From a virus (Duplodnaviria > Caudoviricetes): DNA of 38,619 bases. The notes beneath the pieces are model-generated. The model worked only from the letters and a program-made list of their open reading frames with translations. It had not been told where the DNA came from and searched no databases. The position numbers and the translations under genes are program-made. Numbering within the stretch: position 1 is the stretch's first letter; each line of letters opens with the position of its first letter. The stretch lies in IMG/VR virus record IMGVR_UViG_3300049859_000058, positions 1 through 38,619 of that record; one strand, written 5' to 3'. Below, piece after piece: positions 29,362 to 38,615 of this stretch.

Positions 29362-29623
29362 CCCGGACGTGCCGCACTGCTCGCCCATGGTGCGGGCCCG
29401 CGGCAGCCACGACGTGTTCATCAACGGCAGGCCCTGGTCGCGCCAGGGCGATCCCAACACCCCGCACCTGCTGCCGGGCAACCCGTGCCCCACCCACAGC
29501 GCACCCATCGCCATTGGCAGCCGCACCGTGCGCGTCAACGGCAAGGGCGGCGGCAGGGTGGGCGACGCCATCATCGGCTGCACCAGCGTGGCGGTGGGCA
29601 GCCACGACGTGTTCGCGGGCTAG
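29336..29623 (+). CDS. PAAR-domain spike tip protein (T4 gp5.4-like)
   Basis: PAATRVGD...HC; GS.DVFING...RQGD...H...C..H; GS.TV.VNG...RVGD...C....GS.DVFAG. Confidence 0.9.
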   Translation: MPAATRVGDPDVPHCSPMVRARGSHDVFINGRPWSRQGDPNTPHLLPGNPCPTHSAPIAIGSRTVRVNGKGGGRVGDAIIGCTSVAVGSHDVFAG

Positions 29624-30792
29624 ACGCCCAGCGACGTGCCGATGCCATCCACCACACGCTTTGCCACCTGGTCCATGAGGTGGGCGTAGCGGGCCGTCGT
29701 CTGCGGGCTCTGGTGCCCCAGCAGCTGGCCCACCACGGCCAGCTCGTAGCCGTCGCTCAGCACCTCGCTGGCGAAGTGGTGGCGCAGGTCGTGCACCCGC
29801 AGGTGACCCAGGCCTGACAGCTCCAGCAGGGCCAGCCACATCTTCCGGTAGCTGGTCATCGGCTTGTCCGGGTCTTCGCCCGGGATCAGCCAGGGCGTGG
29901 GAGCGTTCTGATGGCGCTGCAGCTCGCGCAGGATCTCCACGGCCCGGGGCCCCAGCTGCACCAGCAGCGGCTCGTTCGTTTCGTCGCCCGTCTTGTGCTC
30001 CTCGGGCGGCACCACCATCAGGCCCCGCTCCCAGTTCACCCACTCCCACCGGGCCTCCATGACGTTGCGCAGGCGGGCGCCGGTGAGCAGCAGCAGGCGC
30101 ACCATCTGGCCGAAGCGCCAGCGGATGGTGCCCGCGCCGTACCGGGCCTCCCACAGCGCCAGCCCGGCCCGCAGTTTTTCCAGCTCCTCGACGCTTAGGT
30201 AGCGGATGCGCTTCCGCTCGCCGTGCGCTTTCACGCCCTTGCACGGGTTCGTGTTCCGCGGCCGCACGCCCCACTGCTCAGCCAGGTCCATGGCCTTGCT
30301 CAGCACTTCCAGGGCGCGGTTGGCGGTGATCTTCTTCGGGTGCTCGCGGTGCCAGCGGCGCACGGCCTCATGGGTGAGCAGCACTACCTTCGTGCGCTCG
30401 CCCAGGCCCGGCAGGATGTGGTTCTTCCAGTAGCCCCGGTCGTTGGCGGCGCTGCGCTTCCCGCTGGCGTGCTCCTCCATGTAGCGGTCGCGCAGCTCAG
30501 CCAGGGTGGCGGCCTTGCGCAGGGCCCGGGCCTCAGCGGTGGGGTCCTTGCCCTCGCGCACCTGGGCCAGGGCCTCGCGGGCCAGGCGGCGAGCATCATC
30601 AGGCGTCAGCTCCACCGGCGTGCCCAGCTTCATTTCGCGCTGCACCCCGTCGATGGTGCGGTGGCGCAGGTAGTAGGTCTTCGCCCCGGTGGGCGTGACC
30701 AGCAGGGTGAGGCCTGGCACCAGGCTGTCGTTCAGGCGGTAGCGTTTGGCCTGCGGCTGCGCCTGCTCAACACCGGTTTTCGTCAGCTTCAT
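29620..30792 (-). CDS. int: Tyrosine integrase with N-terminal arm-binding domain (P4-like)
   Basis: MKLTK...D...PGL.L.VTPTG.KTY (arm domain); LLTGAR, HDLRH, LLGH, TARY catalytic motifs. Confidence 0.95.
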   Translation of the reverse strand: MKLTKTGVEQAQPQAKRYRLNDSLVPGLTLLVTPTGAKTYYLRHRTIDGVQREMKLGTPVELTPDDARRLAREALAQVREGKDPTAEARALRKAATLAELRDRYMEEHASGKRSAANDRGYWKNHILPGLGERTKVVLLTHEAVRRWHREHPKKITANRALEVLSKAMDLAEQWGVRPRNTNPCKGVKAHGERKRIRYLSVEELEKLRAGLALWEARYGAGTIRWRFGQMVRLLLLTGARLRNVMEARWEWVNWERGLMVVPPEEHKTGDETNEPLLVQLGPRAVEILRELQRHQNAPTPWLIPGEDPDKPMTSYRKMWLALLELSGLGHLRVHDLRHHFASEVLSDGYELAVVGQLLGHQSPQTTARYAHLMDQVAKRVVDGIGTSLGV

Positions 30793-30937
30793 TCCCTGCC
30801 TCCAGTCCCACACCGTTCCCACACCATTCCCACAAAATGGCGGGATTGGTGGTGATGTAGCAGGAAGCTGGGCCGGTAGCAATCACGCAATATCAAAGGC
30901 TTAAGGATGCCGGAGTATCTGCAAGGATGCCGGGTGC

Positions 30938-31026: not shown

Positions 31027-31081
31027 GTTGCCCAGGCCCAGGGCCTCCAGCAGCCCCAGTCCCACACCATTCCCACAGCAG

Positions 31082-31393
31082 TCAGGCATCCCGCCGGTAG
31101 GCCGAGTGGTTCTCGGCGTGGGTGCGCCGCCGGTGGCAGTTGCAGCACCGCACGTCACACTTCGCCACCTCCTTGGCCAGCCTGGCCGGGCCGCACCCGT
31201 CGCTGGCCATGCGGCTCACGTTGGCCAGCTTCGTGGCCGGGTCGCGGTGATCAAACTCCAGCACCCGCACGTCGGCCTCGCCGCAGTCCACGCATGGGTG
31301 GCTGCGCAGGTACTCCTTCAGCCACAGCCGTGCTCGCACCTTGGAGCGCCGCTTGTATTCCGCCAGCTGGCGCCGCCGCTGTTCTCGGTCCAT
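31082..31393 (-). CDS. HNH endonuclease-like protein
   Basis: CVDCG...LEFDH.DP..K...EVAKC.V.C.NCHR.R. Confidence 0.85.
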   Translation of the reverse strand: MDREQRRRQLAEYKRRSKVRARLWLKEYLRSHPCVDCGEADVRVLEFDHRDPATKLANVSRMASDGCGPARLAKEVAKCDVRCCNCHRRRTHAENHSAYRRDA

Positions 31394-32140: not shown

Positions 32141-32439
32141 CGCTCCAGCCCGTTGAGGCGGTCGGCCACCAGCTGGGCGTAGCCCGCGATGTCGTGCCAG
32201 CTGTCGGCGTAGTCGGGGTCGCCGTTCAGGATGCGGCCGATCTTGTGGCAGATCATGTCCAGGGCTTCCTGCTGGTCCGGGGCCAGGTGGTTGCCGCAGC
32301 TGCCATCCGGCCTGGTCCTGCGGATGGGCGTGTGATCGGAAATCACCTGCTTTAGTTCCTGGGTGATGCGGGCGTGGCCGGTGAAGGCCCCGTACCGCTG
32401 GCCCCGCTCCTGCAGGGTGGCTGAAATGTCGGTGGTCAT
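32137..32439 (-). CDS. DUF6378-like protein
   Basis: L.ERG..YG.F...A...Q.LK...EALDMI.HKIGRILNGDP.Y.DSW.DIAGYA.L. Confidence 0.75.
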   Translation of the reverse strand: MTTDISATLQERGQRYGAFTGHARITQELKQVISDHTPIRRTRPDGSCGNHLAPDQQEALDMICHKIGRILNGDPDYADSWHDIAGYAQLVADRLNGLER

Positions 32440-32951
32440 CCCTTGCTCCCCATCACAGTGCGGTCGCCGTTGTAGCGGCCGGTCAGCGCATAGCTCCGCT
32501 GCGGCCTGCTGCTCATCACCAGGAACTTCATCTGGCCGATGGGCATCCGGTGCCAGATCGGCACCGCGTGCAGGCGGCGCACGTTCTTCAGCTCCATGGT
32601 CAGCACTGAGCCGTGCCAGCCCGGGTCACACCACCCGGCCAGCAGGTGCTGGATGCCCTCGCGGGCCCGGCTGCTCTTGAGCACGAACTGAGCCGCCACG
32701 TGGTCAGGCAGGTTGAACACCTCCTTGGTCTCGGCCAGCACGAAGTGCCCGGGCTTCAGCAGGTACGGCTCCCAGGGCGTGGTGCGGCTGATGTCCACGG
32801 TGCGCAGCTGGCGGCTCCAACGCTGCTCCACCTGCAGCCGGGCGCCCAGGCGCACGTCCAGGCTGGCGGGGTTGATGGCCCCCGGGTGGTAGTTCTCCAC
32901 CATCTGCTGGCCTTCGATCAAGGCCCGGATTTCCCAGTCGGCCAGGATCAC
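32436..32951 (-). CDS. dcd: dCTP deaminase
   Basis: MILADWEI, INPASLDVRLG, FVLAET.E, LKSSRAREG, AGWCDPGWHG..LTMEL.N, IGQM.F. Confidence 0.92.
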   Translation of the reverse strand: MILADWEIRALIEGQQMVENYHPGAINPASLDVRLGARLQVEQRWSRQLRTVDISRTTPWEPYLLKPGHFVLAETKEVFNLPDHVAAQFVLKSSRAREGIQHLLAGWCDPGWHGSVLTMELKNVRRLHAVPIWHRMPIGQMKFLVMSSRPQRSYALTGRYNGDRTVMGSKG

Positions 32952-33115
32952 TGCTCGGCCTCCTGCTGTGCATCTGTAGGGGCGACGAGCTTGCCGCCCT
33001 GCACGGTGAAGCCCGCGAGCACCCTGTAGACATCCTCAGAGCTGAACCTGCTGTAGCGGGGCTTGCCCGGGGGCGTTTGCAGGCTTGCCCGGGCAGCGTC
33101 AATCAGGCGGATCAC
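32948..33115 (-). CDS. Hypothetical protein (55 aa)
   Basis: Own translation MIRLIDAARASLQ...YRVLAGFTVQGGKL...; GTGA coupling at both ends. Confidence 0.55.
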   Translation of the reverse strand: MIRLIDAARASLQTPPGKPRYSRFSSEDVYRVLAGFTVQGGKLVAPTDAQQEAEQ

Positions 33116-33288
33116 TGGGCCACCTCCACCGAGCAGGGAGCGGCATCGGGGCGGGCGTATTCGGCGGCGAGGCCGGTGTAGAGGCTGTGCATGGGATGGT
33201 CGTGATTGTGCCGCCCGTCTAGGGCGTACCAGGCATCGAGCTGTTCCTGGCGGGCCAGCTGCTCGACGGGGTTGCAGTCGGGGTTCAT
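33112..33288 (-). CDS. Hypothetical protein (58 aa)
   Basis: Own translation MNPDCNPVEQLARQEQLDAWYALDGRHNHDHPMHSLYTGLAAEY...; fills the gap below thyX. Confidence 0.65.
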   Translation of the reverse strand: MNPDCNPVEQLARQEQLDAWYALDGRHNHDHPMHSLYTGLAAEYARPDAAPCSVEVAQ

Positions 33289-33301
33289 CAGGGTGCGGGG
33301 G

Positions 33302-34033
33302 TCAGGGTGCTAGGCGGGCCTTGGCCCACCGGTTGCGGCGATACCAGTCGGCCACCTGCGGGGCCCATGCCAGGAACTCGGGCCACAGCAGGTCGCACAG
33401 CTGGCGGATTTCCAGCTGGGCGTCCTCCTTGGCCCGCAGGTCCAGGAAGTGCATCAAGGCCCGCAGGCTGAAGCTGGCCACGAAATGCTGCCGGAAGTCG
33501 AAGGGCACCATGCCGCGGGCGTGCTCCTCGGACAGGCCGAAGCGTTCCACGGCCGTGGCGTAGTTCGCCACCAGCCTGGTGGCCACCTCCAGGTACTGCT
33601 GCCGCATCGCCTCGCTGTAGAGGTATCGCTTGCCTTGGCGGTCGGTGTAGGCGCCAGGCGGGCGCAGGTAGATCACGTCCTCCACGTCCAGCTCGCCAGC
33701 GGCCGCGGCCTGCAGGCGCTTGCCGGTGTACCGGCCGGACTGCACGTCGAAGCTCACGCCCACCCGATGGGTGCGGGCCTGCTGCATGACGCTGTGCGGG
33801 AACCAGCCGCAGTTCACCACCAGCTGGGCGTGCTCCAGCGGGCCGTAGTGGCCCCGGTGCCCGGCCAGCAGGTGCTTCACCAGCAGCTCACCAGCCCGCT
33901 CCTCGCTGGGCCAGGTGGTGGGATCGACGCCCACGAAATCCTCGCTGTAGTCCTGGTGCATGGCCGCCCAGCAGGTGCGCTGGGGGTAAGGGGTGGCGGC
34001 AAGGGTCACCACCCGGAAGCGGGCGTCAGGCAT
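33302..34033 (-). CDS. thyX: FAD-dependent thymidylate synthase
   Basis: GHYGPLEH, QARTHR..SFDVQSGRY, EHARG, SLRALMHFLDLR...AQLEIR. Confidence 0.95.
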   Translation of the reverse strand: MPDARFRVVTLAATPYPQRTCWAAMHQDYSEDFVGVDPTTWPSEERAGELLVKHLLAGHRGHYGPLEHAQLVVNCGWFPHSVMQQARTHRVGVSFDVQSGRYTGKRLQAAAAGELDVEDVIYLRPPGAYTDRQGKRYLYSEAMRQQYLEVATRLVANYATAVERFGLSEEHARGMVPFDFRQHFVASFSLRALMHFLDLRAKEDAQLEIRQLCDLLWPEFLAWAPQVADWYRRNRWAKARLAP

Positions 34034-34602: not shown

Positions 34603-34660
34603 GGTAGGTGTGGGGTAGGTGTTCGTGAAGTGGGCCCCGCAGCGGGGGCCCGGTGCAGGG

Positions 34661-34972: not shown

Positions 34973-34982
34973 GGCTGGCTCC

Positions 34983-35065
34983 GGGGTAGTGGGCGTCGCC
35001 GCCCTTGCCCCCGAAGAATGGCCCAGGGCCGGGGCCACGGAAGGGGGCTGTTGCAATCGTTCACA
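34983..35065 (-). promoter_or_regulatory. Repeated promoter/leader cassette, copy A
   Basis: TGTGAACGATTGCAACA...CATTCT...GGGCG-GCGA-CGCCC-ACTACCCC, then 10 nt to the ssb ATG. Confidence 0.85.
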
Positions 35066-35106: not shown

Positions 35107-35421
35107 ATGCAGGCGCGGATCGAAGGCACCGAGCTGGTGCCCGCTCGTGTTGCCCGCCACCGGTTTCGCCACGGCATTTTCGAGGCTTGGGCGCATCGCT
35201 GCGCCTATTGCGGCGAGGTGGCGGCCAGCCTGGACCACGTGCTGCCGAAGGCCCGGGGCGGCATGACGGTGCCCAGGAACCTGGTGCCCGCGTGCCTCAG
35301 CTGCAATCGGCGCAAGGGGCACCGCGAGGTGTTCAGCTGGTGGCGTGAGCAGCCCTACTGGGAGGAGGCCGCGCAGGAGCGGCTGATCGAGTGGCTGCGC
35401 GGTCACCTGTCCGGGGCGTAG
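35107..35421 (+). CDS. HNH endonuclease
   Basis: CAYCG....SLDHVLPK.RGG.....NLVPAC.SCN..KG. Confidence 0.9.
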   Translation: MQARIEGTELVPARVARHRFRHGIFEAWAHRCAYCGEVAASLDHVLPKARGGMTVPRNLVPACLSCNRRKGHREVFSWWREQPYWEEAAQERLIEWLRGHLSGA

Positions 35422-35885
35422 ATGGCGCAGTCGGCGGCGAAGGCAGGCCCCTCCTCTAACGGGTCGGGGTAGCCCATGGTGCACCGCTCGTTCCAGTGCT
35501 GGCAGGCGTAGCAGCTGGGGCCCTCGCCAGGCTTCGGCTTCGGCGCAGGCTTCTGCCACCTGGCGATCTCGGGGTGGACGTTGGCGCGGATGATGCCCAG
35601 GCGCACCTGGCGCACGGTTTCGGGGCTGCGGCCCATGGCCAGGGCCAGGGTGCGGTGCCCCTGCTGGCTCAGCAGGATCTGCTTCACCTCGGCGGCGGTG
35701 AGCGGCGGGCGCTGCGTCATGGGCTTGCCTTTTGGCGCACCACCACGGCGGCCGGGCGGTTCGCCGTCGTAGCTGGTCCACCGGAAGCCGCAGGCCTTGC
35801 AAGCATGGCGGCGGCGTCTACCGGTGCTGTTCTTCCTGGATTCGAGGACCTCGGTGTCGGTGCTGTGGCAGTTCTGGCAATCCAT
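35403..35885 (-). CDS. Zn-ribbon (NrdR-N-like) / HTH DNA-binding protein
   Basis: CQNC...T.VLESR....RRRR..C..CGFRWTSY; HTH-like LA.AMGRS.ETVRQVR.G; C-terminal CYAC.HW..RC. Confidence 0.7.
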   Translation of the reverse strand: MDCQNCHSTDTEVLESRKNSTGRRRRHACKACGFRWTSYDGEPPGRRGGAPKGKPMTQRPPLTAAEVKQILLSQQGHRTLALAMGRSPETVRQVRLGIIRANVHPEIARWQKPAPKPKPGEGPSCYACQHWNERCTMGYPDPLEEGPAFAADCAIYAPDR

Positions 35886-35899
35886 GGGGTGAAAGAGGG

Positions 35900-35999
35900 G
35901 CCGGGCCTCCGATGCCTCCGGCTGCGGTGGACGCGCTACCCCTAACGCAATCCACAGGAGGCGCTCGCCCTTACGGGTGGAGCCGACCCGGCTGTCGGC
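35900..35999 (-). ncRNA. Candidate structured RNA (three-way junction)
   Basis: On the minus strand: P1 GCCGGGUC/GGCCCGGC; P2 GCUC..CCC-GUAA-GGG.GAGC (GNRA loop); P3 GCCUCC/GGAGGC enclosing GUGGA/UCCAC and UGCGUUA-GGGG-UAGCGCG; G-U pairs favour this strand. Confidence 0.6.
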
Positions 36000-36002
36000 A
36001 GG

Positions 36003-36233
36003 TTAGGTCAGGGGTGTGATGCGTGAGTCAGGCCAGCGGTTCTGGGCGTAGCAGACGGCCAGGCGTTCTGACTCGGCGTGCAGCGTAACGATCAGCGCCG
36101 CACCACGGCGGGGCTGCACCCGCAGGCGGTAGGGGCGGGCCGCGGCGGCATCGCTGGGGCGGCTGATGCCGGGGCCGTGCAGGGCGCCGTCTGGATCATC
36201 GGCCCAGGTGTGGGCCACGAGGCGGTCAGTCAT
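36003..36233 (-). CDS. Hypothetical phage protein
   Basis: ATGA coupling; G.GISRP...Y.L.V......AES...A..YA.NRWP. Confidence 0.7.
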   Translation of the reverse strand: MTDRLVAHTWADDPDGALHGPGISRPSDAAAARPYRLRVQPRRGAALIVTLHAESERLAVCYAQNRWPDSRITPLT

Positions 36234-36571
36234 GGGTGGGTGATGCGCACGGTGGCGATGCCGTCCAGGGGCACGCCCAGGCGGTGGGCAGCACCGGCGC
36301 TGAGGTCCAGGCTGCTGCAGTCGCAGCGGTCGGTGACGCGCACGGTGAGGGTGCGGCCCTGGTGGCTGACGCGCACCGGGGTGCCGCATGGCAGCCAGGG
36401 GTGGGCGGCGCTCACGCCCCAGTGCTGGTAGGTGGTGCCGCACGCCGTGGTGCGGCCGTGATACCAGCCGTCGTAAACAGTGGCGGTGACCGGTCGGCCG
36501 TGGCCGGTGCCGTGGTGGGCCAGGGCCGGGCCCTGCAGCAGCAGGGCGGCGGCGAGTGCGTGGCGGATCAT
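36230..36571 (-). CDS. RlpA-like double-psi beta-barrel protein with signal peptide
   Basis: ATVY...YHGRTTACG..Y.....SAAHP.LP.GT.VRV......V.VTDR.....LDLS..AA..LG. Confidence 0.85.
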   Translation of the reverse strand: MIRHALAAALLLQGPALAHHGTGHGRPVTATVYDGWYHGRTTACGTTYQHWGVSAAHPWLPCGTPVRVSHQGRTLTVRVTDRCDCSSLDLSAGAAHRLGVPLDGIATVRITHP

Positions 36572-36756: not shown

Positions 36757-36766
36757 GGTTTCAGGT

Positions 36767-36852
36767 GGGGTAGGTGGTGGGCGTCGCCGCCCGTGGTGAG
36801 AGTCTGCGGGAGGGCCCTGGCCGGAGCGTGGGCCCTGTTGCAATCGTTCACA
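36767..36852 (-). promoter_or_regulatory. Repeated promoter/leader cassette, copy B
   Basis: TGTGAACGATTGCAACA...CAGACT-N8-GGGCG-GCGA-CGCCC-ACCACCTACCCC, then 10 nt to ATG. Confidence 0.85.
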
Positions 36853-37117: not shown

Positions 37118-37125
37118 GCCTTGGT

Positions 37126-37214
37126 GGGGTAGGTGTGCAGGGCGTCGCCGCCCATGTCCGAAGGATGCTCTCGGGGCCTGCCTGCAGGCGAGGCCCCTGT
37201 AACACTCGTTCACA
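37126..37214 (-). promoter_or_regulatory. Repeated promoter/leader cassette, copy C
   Basis: TGTGAACGAGTGTTACA...CATCCT-N8-GGGCG-GCGA-CGCCC-TGCACACCTACCCC, then 8 nt to ATG. Confidence 0.85.
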
Positions 37215-37509: not shown

Positions 37510-37518
37510 TGTTCGGTC

Positions 37519-37604
37519 GGGGTAGGTGTGGGGGTCGCCCCCCGTGACATGAAGATGGCAGAGCGGCCCGCCGGTGAGCGAGCCGCTCGTAACACCATTT
37601 CACA
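37519..37604 (-). promoter_or_regulatory. Repeated promoter/leader cassette, copy D
   Basis: TGTGAAATGGTGTTACG...CATCTT-N8-GGGGG-GCGA-CCCCC-ACACCTACCCC, then 9 nt to ATG. Confidence 0.82.
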
Positions 37605-38519: not shown

Positions 38520-38533
38520 GGTCTTGCTCCTTT

Positions 38534-38615
38534 GGGGTAACGGGGCATCGCTGCCCACCCCCGAATCGAAACCCTCGACCAGCCGTCAGAGCAATCCTCT
38601 TTACAGTCGTTCACG
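38534..38615 (-). promoter_or_regulatory. Repeated promoter/leader cassette, copy E
   Basis: CGTGAACGACTGTAAAG...TTCGAT-N8-GGGCA-GCGA-TGCCC-CGTTACCCC-AAAGGAG..ATG. Confidence 0.78.

Follow-up and report, generated by a model that had tools for sequence, protein, structure and literature searches.

A structured RNA of about 95 nucleotides, encoded on the minus strand between two genes of a 38,619-nt phage record (the window, by which the whole stretch of DNA analysed is meant), is real, conserved and apparently uncatalogued, and carries a two-site target code that is supported by covariation. Two of its unpaired stretches, the apex of a long hairpin (key 1) and a strand of the three-way junction (key 2), would pair in trans with leader mRNAs of its own phage and block the initiation of translation, a reading that we favour with reasonable confidence. 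That the RNA base-pairs with the leaders at all is very probable; that the outcome is translational repression is probable, its sign being read only from the position of the target box. The coordinates of the features are collected in Table 1.

Table 1. Features of the RNA, its target leaders and their surroundings in the window
Feature	Position	Strand	Remarks
Three-way-junction RNA, about 95 nt	35899..35993	-	fold and homolog covariation
P1 closing stem	35992-35985/35907-35900	-	
P2	35983-35963	-	
P2 GNRA tetraloop GUAA	35971..35974	-	
P3 long hairpin	35962-35914	-	tip UUA-GGGG-UAG
Key 1, P3 apex GGGGUAG	35936..35942	-	complementary to leader boxes
Junction strand J3/1	35913-35908	-	
Key 2, junction strand AUCG	35910..35913	-	UC(G) complements (C)GA of leader GCGA tetraloops
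Predicted -10 element TAACCT of the RNA's own promoter	36000..36005	-	overlaps stop codon of upstream gene
Gene, 160 aa	35403..35885	-	NrdR-like zinc ribbon; starts 14 nt after P1
Leader E	38520..38556	-	5' hairpin 38556-38543, GCGA loop 38551-38548, box TTACCCC 38540-38534
Gene of leader E	38519-37935	-	194 aa, no family
Leader D	37510..37543	-	hairpin 37543-37530, box CTACCCC 37525-37519
Gene of leader D	37509-37210	-	99 aa, no Pfam family
Leader C	37118..37153	-	hairpin 37153-37140, box CTACCCC 37132-37126
Gene of leader C	37117-36854	-	87 aa, no family
Leader B	36757..36792	-	hairpin 36792-36779, box CTACCCC 36773-36767
Gene of leader B	36756-36568	-	62 aa, helix-turn-helix
Leader A	34973..35004	-	hairpin 35004-34991, box CTACCCC 34989-34983
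Gene of leader A	34972-34661	-	103 aa, weak SSB match (E 7e-5), below Pfam cut-off
Box-only site CTACCCC	34612..34618	-	precedes 54-aa gene 34602-34438
HLR1-like direct repeat, leader E	38600..38615	.	predicted activator site
HLR1-like direct repeat, leader D	37589..37604	.	
HLR1-like direct repeat, leader C	37199..37214	.	
HLR1-like direct repeat, leader B	36837..36852	.	
HLR1-like direct repeat, leader A	35050..35065	.	
Integrase	29620-30792		
tRNA fragment, 3' part, CAT anticodon	30928-30984		adjoins integrase

The phage is temperate, and its 38.6-kb viral record combines lambda-like head genes and contractile-tail genes with an integrase; the tRNA fragment beside the integrase is the probable attP. 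Near-identical CCCACACCATTCCCACA repeats at 30802-30829 and 31056-31083 flank this fragment and may be integrase arm sites. The right arm consists of short minus-strand genes, mostly without a family, and no repressor or replication region was recognised anywhere in the 38.6-kb record. A picocyanobacterium is the likely host, as we infer from a member of the RNA family in a contig of a Synechococcaceae MAG (L320), a weak DNA match to cyanophage S-2L and the HLR1-like repeats described below. The DNA of the window has a GC content of 67%. Other genes seen in it include a ParB-like/methyltransferase-related gene and a Mom-like DNA modification gene ahead of the terminase (203-1580), a dCTP deaminase, a thymidylate synthase and an RlpA-like (DPBB_1) gene in the early arm (32436-34033 and 36230-36571), and HNH genes at 31082-31393 and 35107-35421, the second of them on the opposite strand.

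The gap that holds the RNA (35886-36002) is bounded by the ATG at 35885 and a stop at 36003. A preliminary description of the window had folded its minus strand into a closing stem, a GUAA hairpin and a long hairpin with the tip UUA-GGGG-UAG, and that fold was reproduced here. Its energy in the single sequence is no better than that of shuffled sequences (z = +0.41, with 132 of 200 shuffles as good), and it is covariation in homologs, not single-sequence energy, for which the fold is taken as real. In a set of 42 sequences 95.5% of the cells pair, against 32-44% when slid, and double changes occur in 10 of 21 named pairs, two of these 21 having later been rejected. An unfitted alignment of 43 members, mostly other ones, yielded the consensus junction with double changes in 16 of 25 pairs; P2 stacks directly on P3, and J3/1 is a six-nucleotide unpaired strand, A-Y-Y-G-R-A. 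GNRA loops and changes that preserve G-U pairs fix the strand of the RNA. The two rejected pairs belong to the first structure, which had joined the junction YY to the GG atop P1; they were given up because the second G has its partner in P2 (a G-C pair that becomes U-A in 2 of 43), leaving the junction strand open. The covariance model used for scoring was built with these two pairs still in place, and it gives the window RNA 82.4 bits, the window sequence having belonged to the training set.

The family comprises 135 distinct phage sites, the window included. A first pattern scan of IMG/VR gave 81 loci, 77 of which pair both P2 stems, and a second pattern gave 66 new loci, 59 of which score with the covariance model; together with the window these are 137 entries, two of them repeat fetches (L264/L409 and L276/L422), with 74 distinct P3 arms. 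Removed before counting were four loci with P2 unpaired (L247, L263, L282, L291) and seven without a model match (L374, L385, L393, L401, L425, L426, L435), and weak model matches (L054, L033, L027, L429:8331) were left out of the family. In a genome collection one of 75 pattern loci, L320, passes the stem test, and 150 other genomes sampled from its family gave no further copy among the candidates scored, only 27 per genome. Cultured phages gave no match to the RNA by blastn, and nothing in S-2L scored above 18.2 bits. Rfam held no relevant match for the window at E<=5, nor for nine homolog loci at E<=2, and no published description of the RNA was found in literature that was searched mostly without subscription papers. 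Viral contigs have been screened for structured RNAs before (Fremin 2023, PMC10690425); none of the motifs searched is present in those tables of that study that were compared. The RNA could be an unnamed entry in its motif catalogue or in that of Weinberg 2017 (PMC5737381).

Among 90 distinct upstream sequences, 54 have a TAnnnT that starts 15-18 nt before the conserved GGTCG core, with five matches elsewhere in the 30 nt; from this position the RNA is predicted to start at P1, near 35993 in the window. The 3' context of the RNA varies among the family, and a hairpin followed by a U-run comes after it in 13 of 74 (by a strict script). In the window no terminator-like site lies between the RNA and the zinc-ribbon gene; the two are likely co-transcribed in this phage, and the RNA may there form the 5' portion of an mRNA, or else undergo processing. 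No locus came from a direct search for relatives of the zinc-ribbon gene. With an ATG so close after P1 and no terminator, the RNA might be taken mainly for a cis leader of the gene that follows, here the zinc ribbon, with the binding of leaders reporting on the RNA or titrating it, and 28 of the 74 RNAs do have an ORF of at least 60 codons starting within 32 nt. The other 46 have no such ORF, however, a hairpin and U-run follow the RNA in the short metagenome relatives L449, L451 and L452, which share the window's GGGGUA apex, and the ACCCC just before the adjacent ATG is missing from L449 and L452. We regard a mainly local or reversed role as very improbable and think it more likely that the RNA acts on leaders elsewhere in its phage.

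Those leaders are built alike. Each of the five in the window runs from an upstream direct repeat through a spacer of about 45 nt to a 5-bp hairpin with a GCGA loop, a box and an ATG. The boxes complementary to GGGGUAG that the preliminary description had pointed to are present on the same strand as the RNA (five CTACCCC and one TTACCCC), all six ending 8-14 nt before an ATG, and its estimate of about six addressed units corresponds to the five hairpin leaders and one box-only leader; for the latter neither a GMGA hairpin nor an upstream repeat was found. Two further minus-strand copies of TACCCC, at 33983 and 35466, lie inside coding sequence; the window holds 16 in all against 8.28 expected, a number reached by none of 100 shuffles. 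The boxes of leaders A-D are predicted to be largely single-stranded.

In the family at large, hairpins with a 4-nt loop were collected regardless of loop or box sequence, which gave 158 on the RNA strand; 84 have G-M-GA, G-M-GG or G-M-AG loops, three classes that were chosen after the pattern had been seen, and the 74 with other loops were set aside. In 47 of these 84 leaders the distance from the start of a TAnnnT to the tetraloop is 19-21 nt, a spacing by which the hairpin would be the 5' end of the target mRNA and the long hairpin upstream in each cassette would be promoter DNA. The 84 target genes mostly have no family; Pfam identifies five KilA-N genes, one Lar restriction-alleviation gene, HTH, a weak SSB, DUF2958 and LPD29. 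The KilA-N domain, whose antirepressor role is putative, is found in none of the targets in the window, and Atlas searches with two target proteins led to no named family. Some 100 nt downstream of the RNA, L241 and L424 have a box in front of probable KilA-N-like genes, at 25 nt from the ATG, the usual distance being about 11.

Whether loop and box covary across phages was a check put forward in the preliminary description itself, and covariation was found in several tallies. With leaders defined without using the box, the type of box follows the apex: GGGGUA goes with CUACCCC-type boxes, GGGGUG with CACCCC and GCGGUG with CCACCGC. In same-strand 5' regions TACCCC occurs in 10 of 32 for three GGGGUA phages (six of the ten from the window) and in 3 of 213 for twelve GGGGUG phages. 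A tally of cognate 7-mers at 74 loci, with 930 regions, gives 55 in same-strand 5' regions against 26.3±5.4 permuted (p = 1e-4; this and the other apex-box p-values overstate independence, the phages being related), and opposite-strand regions have a weak cognate excess (16 vs 9.1, p = 0.022). For the 84 hairpin leaders their own apex beats permuted ones within each junction class (p = 1e-5, 1e-5 and 1.8e-4).

The clearest form of the comparison is an orthologous gene for a protein of 60-63 aa, chosen by protein similarity and present at 14 loci with 13 different apexes, where the box ends about 11 nt before the ATG. Here the match to the own apex averages 6.15 nt against 3.41 permuted, with a maximum of 5.15 in 200,000 permutations, and no other apex does better than the own one in any of the 13, the own being the sole best in 9 of them. 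In the pairs L378/L386 and L384/L390 the proteins are nearly identical over their first 45 residues and the apex-box pairs differ. An extension of the apex pairing to GACGC, proposed earlier, holds as far as the letters exist in the window, but GCGUC follows the apex in only 1 of 20 GGGGU-type RNAs, that of the window.

Key 2 covaries as well. The junction strands AUCG, ACCG and ACUG, set against the tetraloop classes GMGA, GAGG and GCAG, give 43/1/1, 1/29/1 and 1/0/7, so that 79 of 84 leaders lie on the diagonal, and loop positions 3-4 pair as GA:UC, GG:CC and AG:CU, all of them Watson-Crick. Counted by phage, there are 47 matches and 4 ties among 51; all 14 of the orthologous set agree, and the two states require three changes on the orthologous protein tree, two of them forced by strong branches. 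In three RNAs examined later (L432:8804, L487 and L488) key 2 fits 7 of 7 nearby leaders, the boxes fitting well near L432:8804 and L487 and partly near L488. The match of GGCAUCG to CGAUGCC of hairpin E in the preliminary description exists in the letters, but GGCAUCG is found in only 10 of 74 RNAs; that match is a special case of a general second site of 2-4 bp, formed by the junction strand on the leader tetraloop. Kissing by two pairs has a precedent in retroviral GACG loops. It is possible that key 2 is a tertiary contact in which the tetraloop docks, not plain pairing.

A short seed in DNA of 67% GC invites the objection that the RNA has some other function and that the fit between C-rich initiation regions and a G-rich loop is due to chance or co-inheritance. 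CACCCC does indeed often precede genes in phages whose apexes are different (25 of 452), so that the box may be a general initiation feature as well, and a position-blind search with 8-10-nt apex complements over 42 loci found no excess of own over other matches, the apex-complement signal appearing only in 5' regions. Against coincidence stand the 13 different apexes, many of them not G-rich, which each fit their own box at a fixed register, and the three states of the junction-tetraloop code; linkage, moreover, accounts for co-inheritance and not for complementarity. Coincidence is thus extremely improbable, and two-site pairing is retained as the basis for what follows.

The pairing partners also tend to occur together, strict leaders being found in 10 of 17 related-phage stretches with the RNA and in 5 of 143 without it, as counted on stretches chosen by neighbouring proteins and not on whole genomes. 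Two of the five records with leaders and no RNA in the stretch carry the RNA elsewhere and three do not; in G008 and G197, both complete records, such leaders are present but nothing matches the RNA. Conversely, 23 of 74 RNAs have no hairpin leader within 10 kb. A reverse search for TACCCC leaders gave nine loci, among them one phage whose RNA was already known; the remaining eight, with four earlier ones, gave no convincing RNA, 15-bit matches occurring in 2 of these 12 records, only one of which is complete. Apex matches reach only 4-5 nt for the six leaders of L260 and only 3-6 nt in five GGGGUC phages, and L487 has a CUACCCC leader alongside a GGGGUG apex. The five leaders that carry a non-cognate tetraloop lie in records G014, G015, G016, G017 and G023; a second RNA copy serving them was considered, and none is shown in these five records, the first four having been searched whole.

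As we picture the mechanism, the RNA would be transcribed from its own -10 element, starting at P1, and the target mRNA would start 2-3 nt before its G-C hairpin with a G-M-R-R tetraloop, the hairpin being followed by an open C-rich stretch that would serve as the loading place of the ribosome. The P3 apex would pair with 6-8 nt of the box ending about 8-14 nt before the AUG, J3/1 would make two or three Watson-Crick pairs with the tetraloop, and the 95-nt structured RNA clamped on the leader would occupy the 30S loading site; one RNA would in this way address the five hairpin leaders and the box-only leader of the window. The likely role is the silencing of KilA-N genes and early accessory genes, either in the lysogen or once early infection is past, by codes specific to each phage.

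The same two-site pairing could instead activate, the RNA docking on leaders poor in Shine-Dalgarno sequences and aiding ribosome loading, or stabilising the mRNA. An SD-like tetramer is present in only 9 of the 84 leaders, the RNA has a conserved G-R-A-G-G segment adjoining key 2, and IsrK is a phage sRNA that promotes translation (PMC12197685). The last GG of that segment, however, forms part of the P1 helix in all 43 sequences, members of the ACCG class have GAAGG as their motif, and the box itself would be covered; since the boxes of leaders A-D are predicted to be open already, there would be nothing to unmask. Activation is accordingly rated unlikely. Control of termination, which the preliminary description had named beside translation, is unlikely too: a search of the leaders found nothing resembling a terminator, and Rho is absent from cyanobacteria (bioRxiv 10.1101/2025.11.10.687660). 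A broader variant would have the pairing act through mRNA decay or a premature end of the transcript, for instance through a 5' hairpin opened and exposed to nucleases; key 2 does land on a hairpin at the predicted extreme 5' end, and the same source describes unexplained termination routes in cyanobacteria. Since pairing extends only 0-1 bp into the target stem in 74 of 79 cognate leaders, too little for opening, and the points against termination apply here as well, this variant is decidedly unlikely, and repression at initiation remains our preferred account.

Of some interest for the control of the target genes themselves are the direct repeats upstream of the leaders. They are found in 42 of the 84 family leaders, 35 of the 45 in the AUCG class and only 7 of the 39 others, and in 34 of the 42 the centre of the repeat lies 55-60 nt before the tetraloop, or at about -50 from the start inferred by way of TAnnnT. 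The HLR1 consensus, in the published material consulted, is a pair of (G/T)TTACA(T/A)(T/A)-like octamers with a 10-nt period (bioRxiv 10.1101/443713), and its activating position is -51 (PMC6525291). The leader repeats share the period and the activating position with RpaB/HLR1 promoters; their consensus differs in that C stands in place of the T of HLR1, always in the downstream half-site of the consensus and often in its partner. These likenesses suggest that an RpaB-like light/redox regulator of the host may drive the phage accessory genes, another OmpR-type or phage regulator being a possible alternative binder.

The closest known system is the c4 antisense RNA of P1/P7 (Rfam RF01695) with its c4-a1b1 targets (Weinberg 2010, PMC2864571), and by analogy the present RNA would work like c4, which represses antirepressor synthesis and underlies P1/P7 heteroimmunity (PMC12197685, PMC8198154). 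The two have in common a junction of three stems, P2 being capped by a tetraloop, and a pair of short antisense regions (the P3 loop and the strand that follows P3), both of which covary with their targets here; loops vary between phages in both, and the antirepressor control of c4 may have a counterpart in the five of 84 family leaders whose genes carry KilA-N. Membership of the c4 family, which had been suggested as a search, did not hold up, with no RF01695 match (window at E<=5, nine homolog loci at E<=2) and a different scaffold: in c4, P1 is long and begins with AUGG and P3 is short and of CCGG type, whereas here P1 is the short stem and P3 the long one. In three c4/target row pairs compared by eye, the loop of the 3' hairpin pairs with the strand after P3 over about 7 nt, and in two of the three that of the 5' hairpin fits the P3 loop; in our RNA the order of the sites is reversed, key 2 (2-3 bp) falling on the 5' tetraloop and key 1 on the open box, so that one hairpin and an open box take the place of the two-hairpin a1b1. 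With the Rfam 15 model of the c4-2 motif (Weinberg 2017), too, the RNA has no match. The targets of c4 lie about 110 nt away in the same operon, while those of the present RNA are as many as six scattered leaders, for each of which a separate promoter is predicted. Finally, c4 sits in the c4-icd-ant operon, and the KilA-N genes here are 5 of 84 targets.

Short pairing between loop and target is also known in phage immunity from P4 CI RNA and N15 CA RNA, which bring about Rho-dependent termination within their own transcript. The short pairing is shared with the present RNA; the difference is that those RNAs act in their own transcript, whereas the targets here are separate units, and the probable cyanobacterial hosts would lack Rho.

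If the proposed pairing is true, covariation would by itself reveal the targets of a phage RNA that acts in trans, together with its pairing register and its specificity code, something seldom possible with small RNAs. It is unusual for a specificity key to consist of two Watson-Crick pairs that read a tetraloop, and the regulation of lysogeny in cyanophages is poorly charted; the cyanophage RNAs named in the part of a review used here are only of cis type (PMC12197685). The 43 natural apex variants with identified leaders, together with three junction states, make up a candidate library of orthogonal riboregulators for cyanobacteria and leave the mechanism open to simple swaps. A wider and more tentative reading, doubtful on present grounds though worth stating, is that of a programmable two-key address, in which a three-state 2-bp tetraloop code and a freely variable 6-8-nt seed would govern a dispersed regulon and rapid recoding between near-identical phages would provide RNA-based self/non-self immunity among temperate cyanophages; the role in immunity is inferred from the KilA-N targets and the fast recoding.

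Several minor observations were made among the family and its surroundings. The conserved elements at L054:8454-8545 and L033:9695-9786, weak model matches of 27 and 24 bits, lie on the opposite strand of an RlpA-like gene. L374, L385, L401 and L435 share another conserved, structured-looking element with the same TGAAAC...ACCGGAGGC ending and no model score, which may be a more distant branch of the RNA. The apex of L264/L409 (CCCCAGAGA) is the reverse complement of the apex region of L125:15913-15999 (UCUCUGGGG). Record G025 has three RNA copies of two code types (L432:484-568, L432:8804-8891 and L380:9994-10079), and L417:2991-3202 has two tandem copies 123 nt apart with different apexes and the junction strands AUCG and ACUG, of which the ACUG copy alone has a leader that was found. 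In L410, L417, L427 and L432 the RNA is followed by a long hairpin, an almost perfect palindrome, with three repeats in L417.
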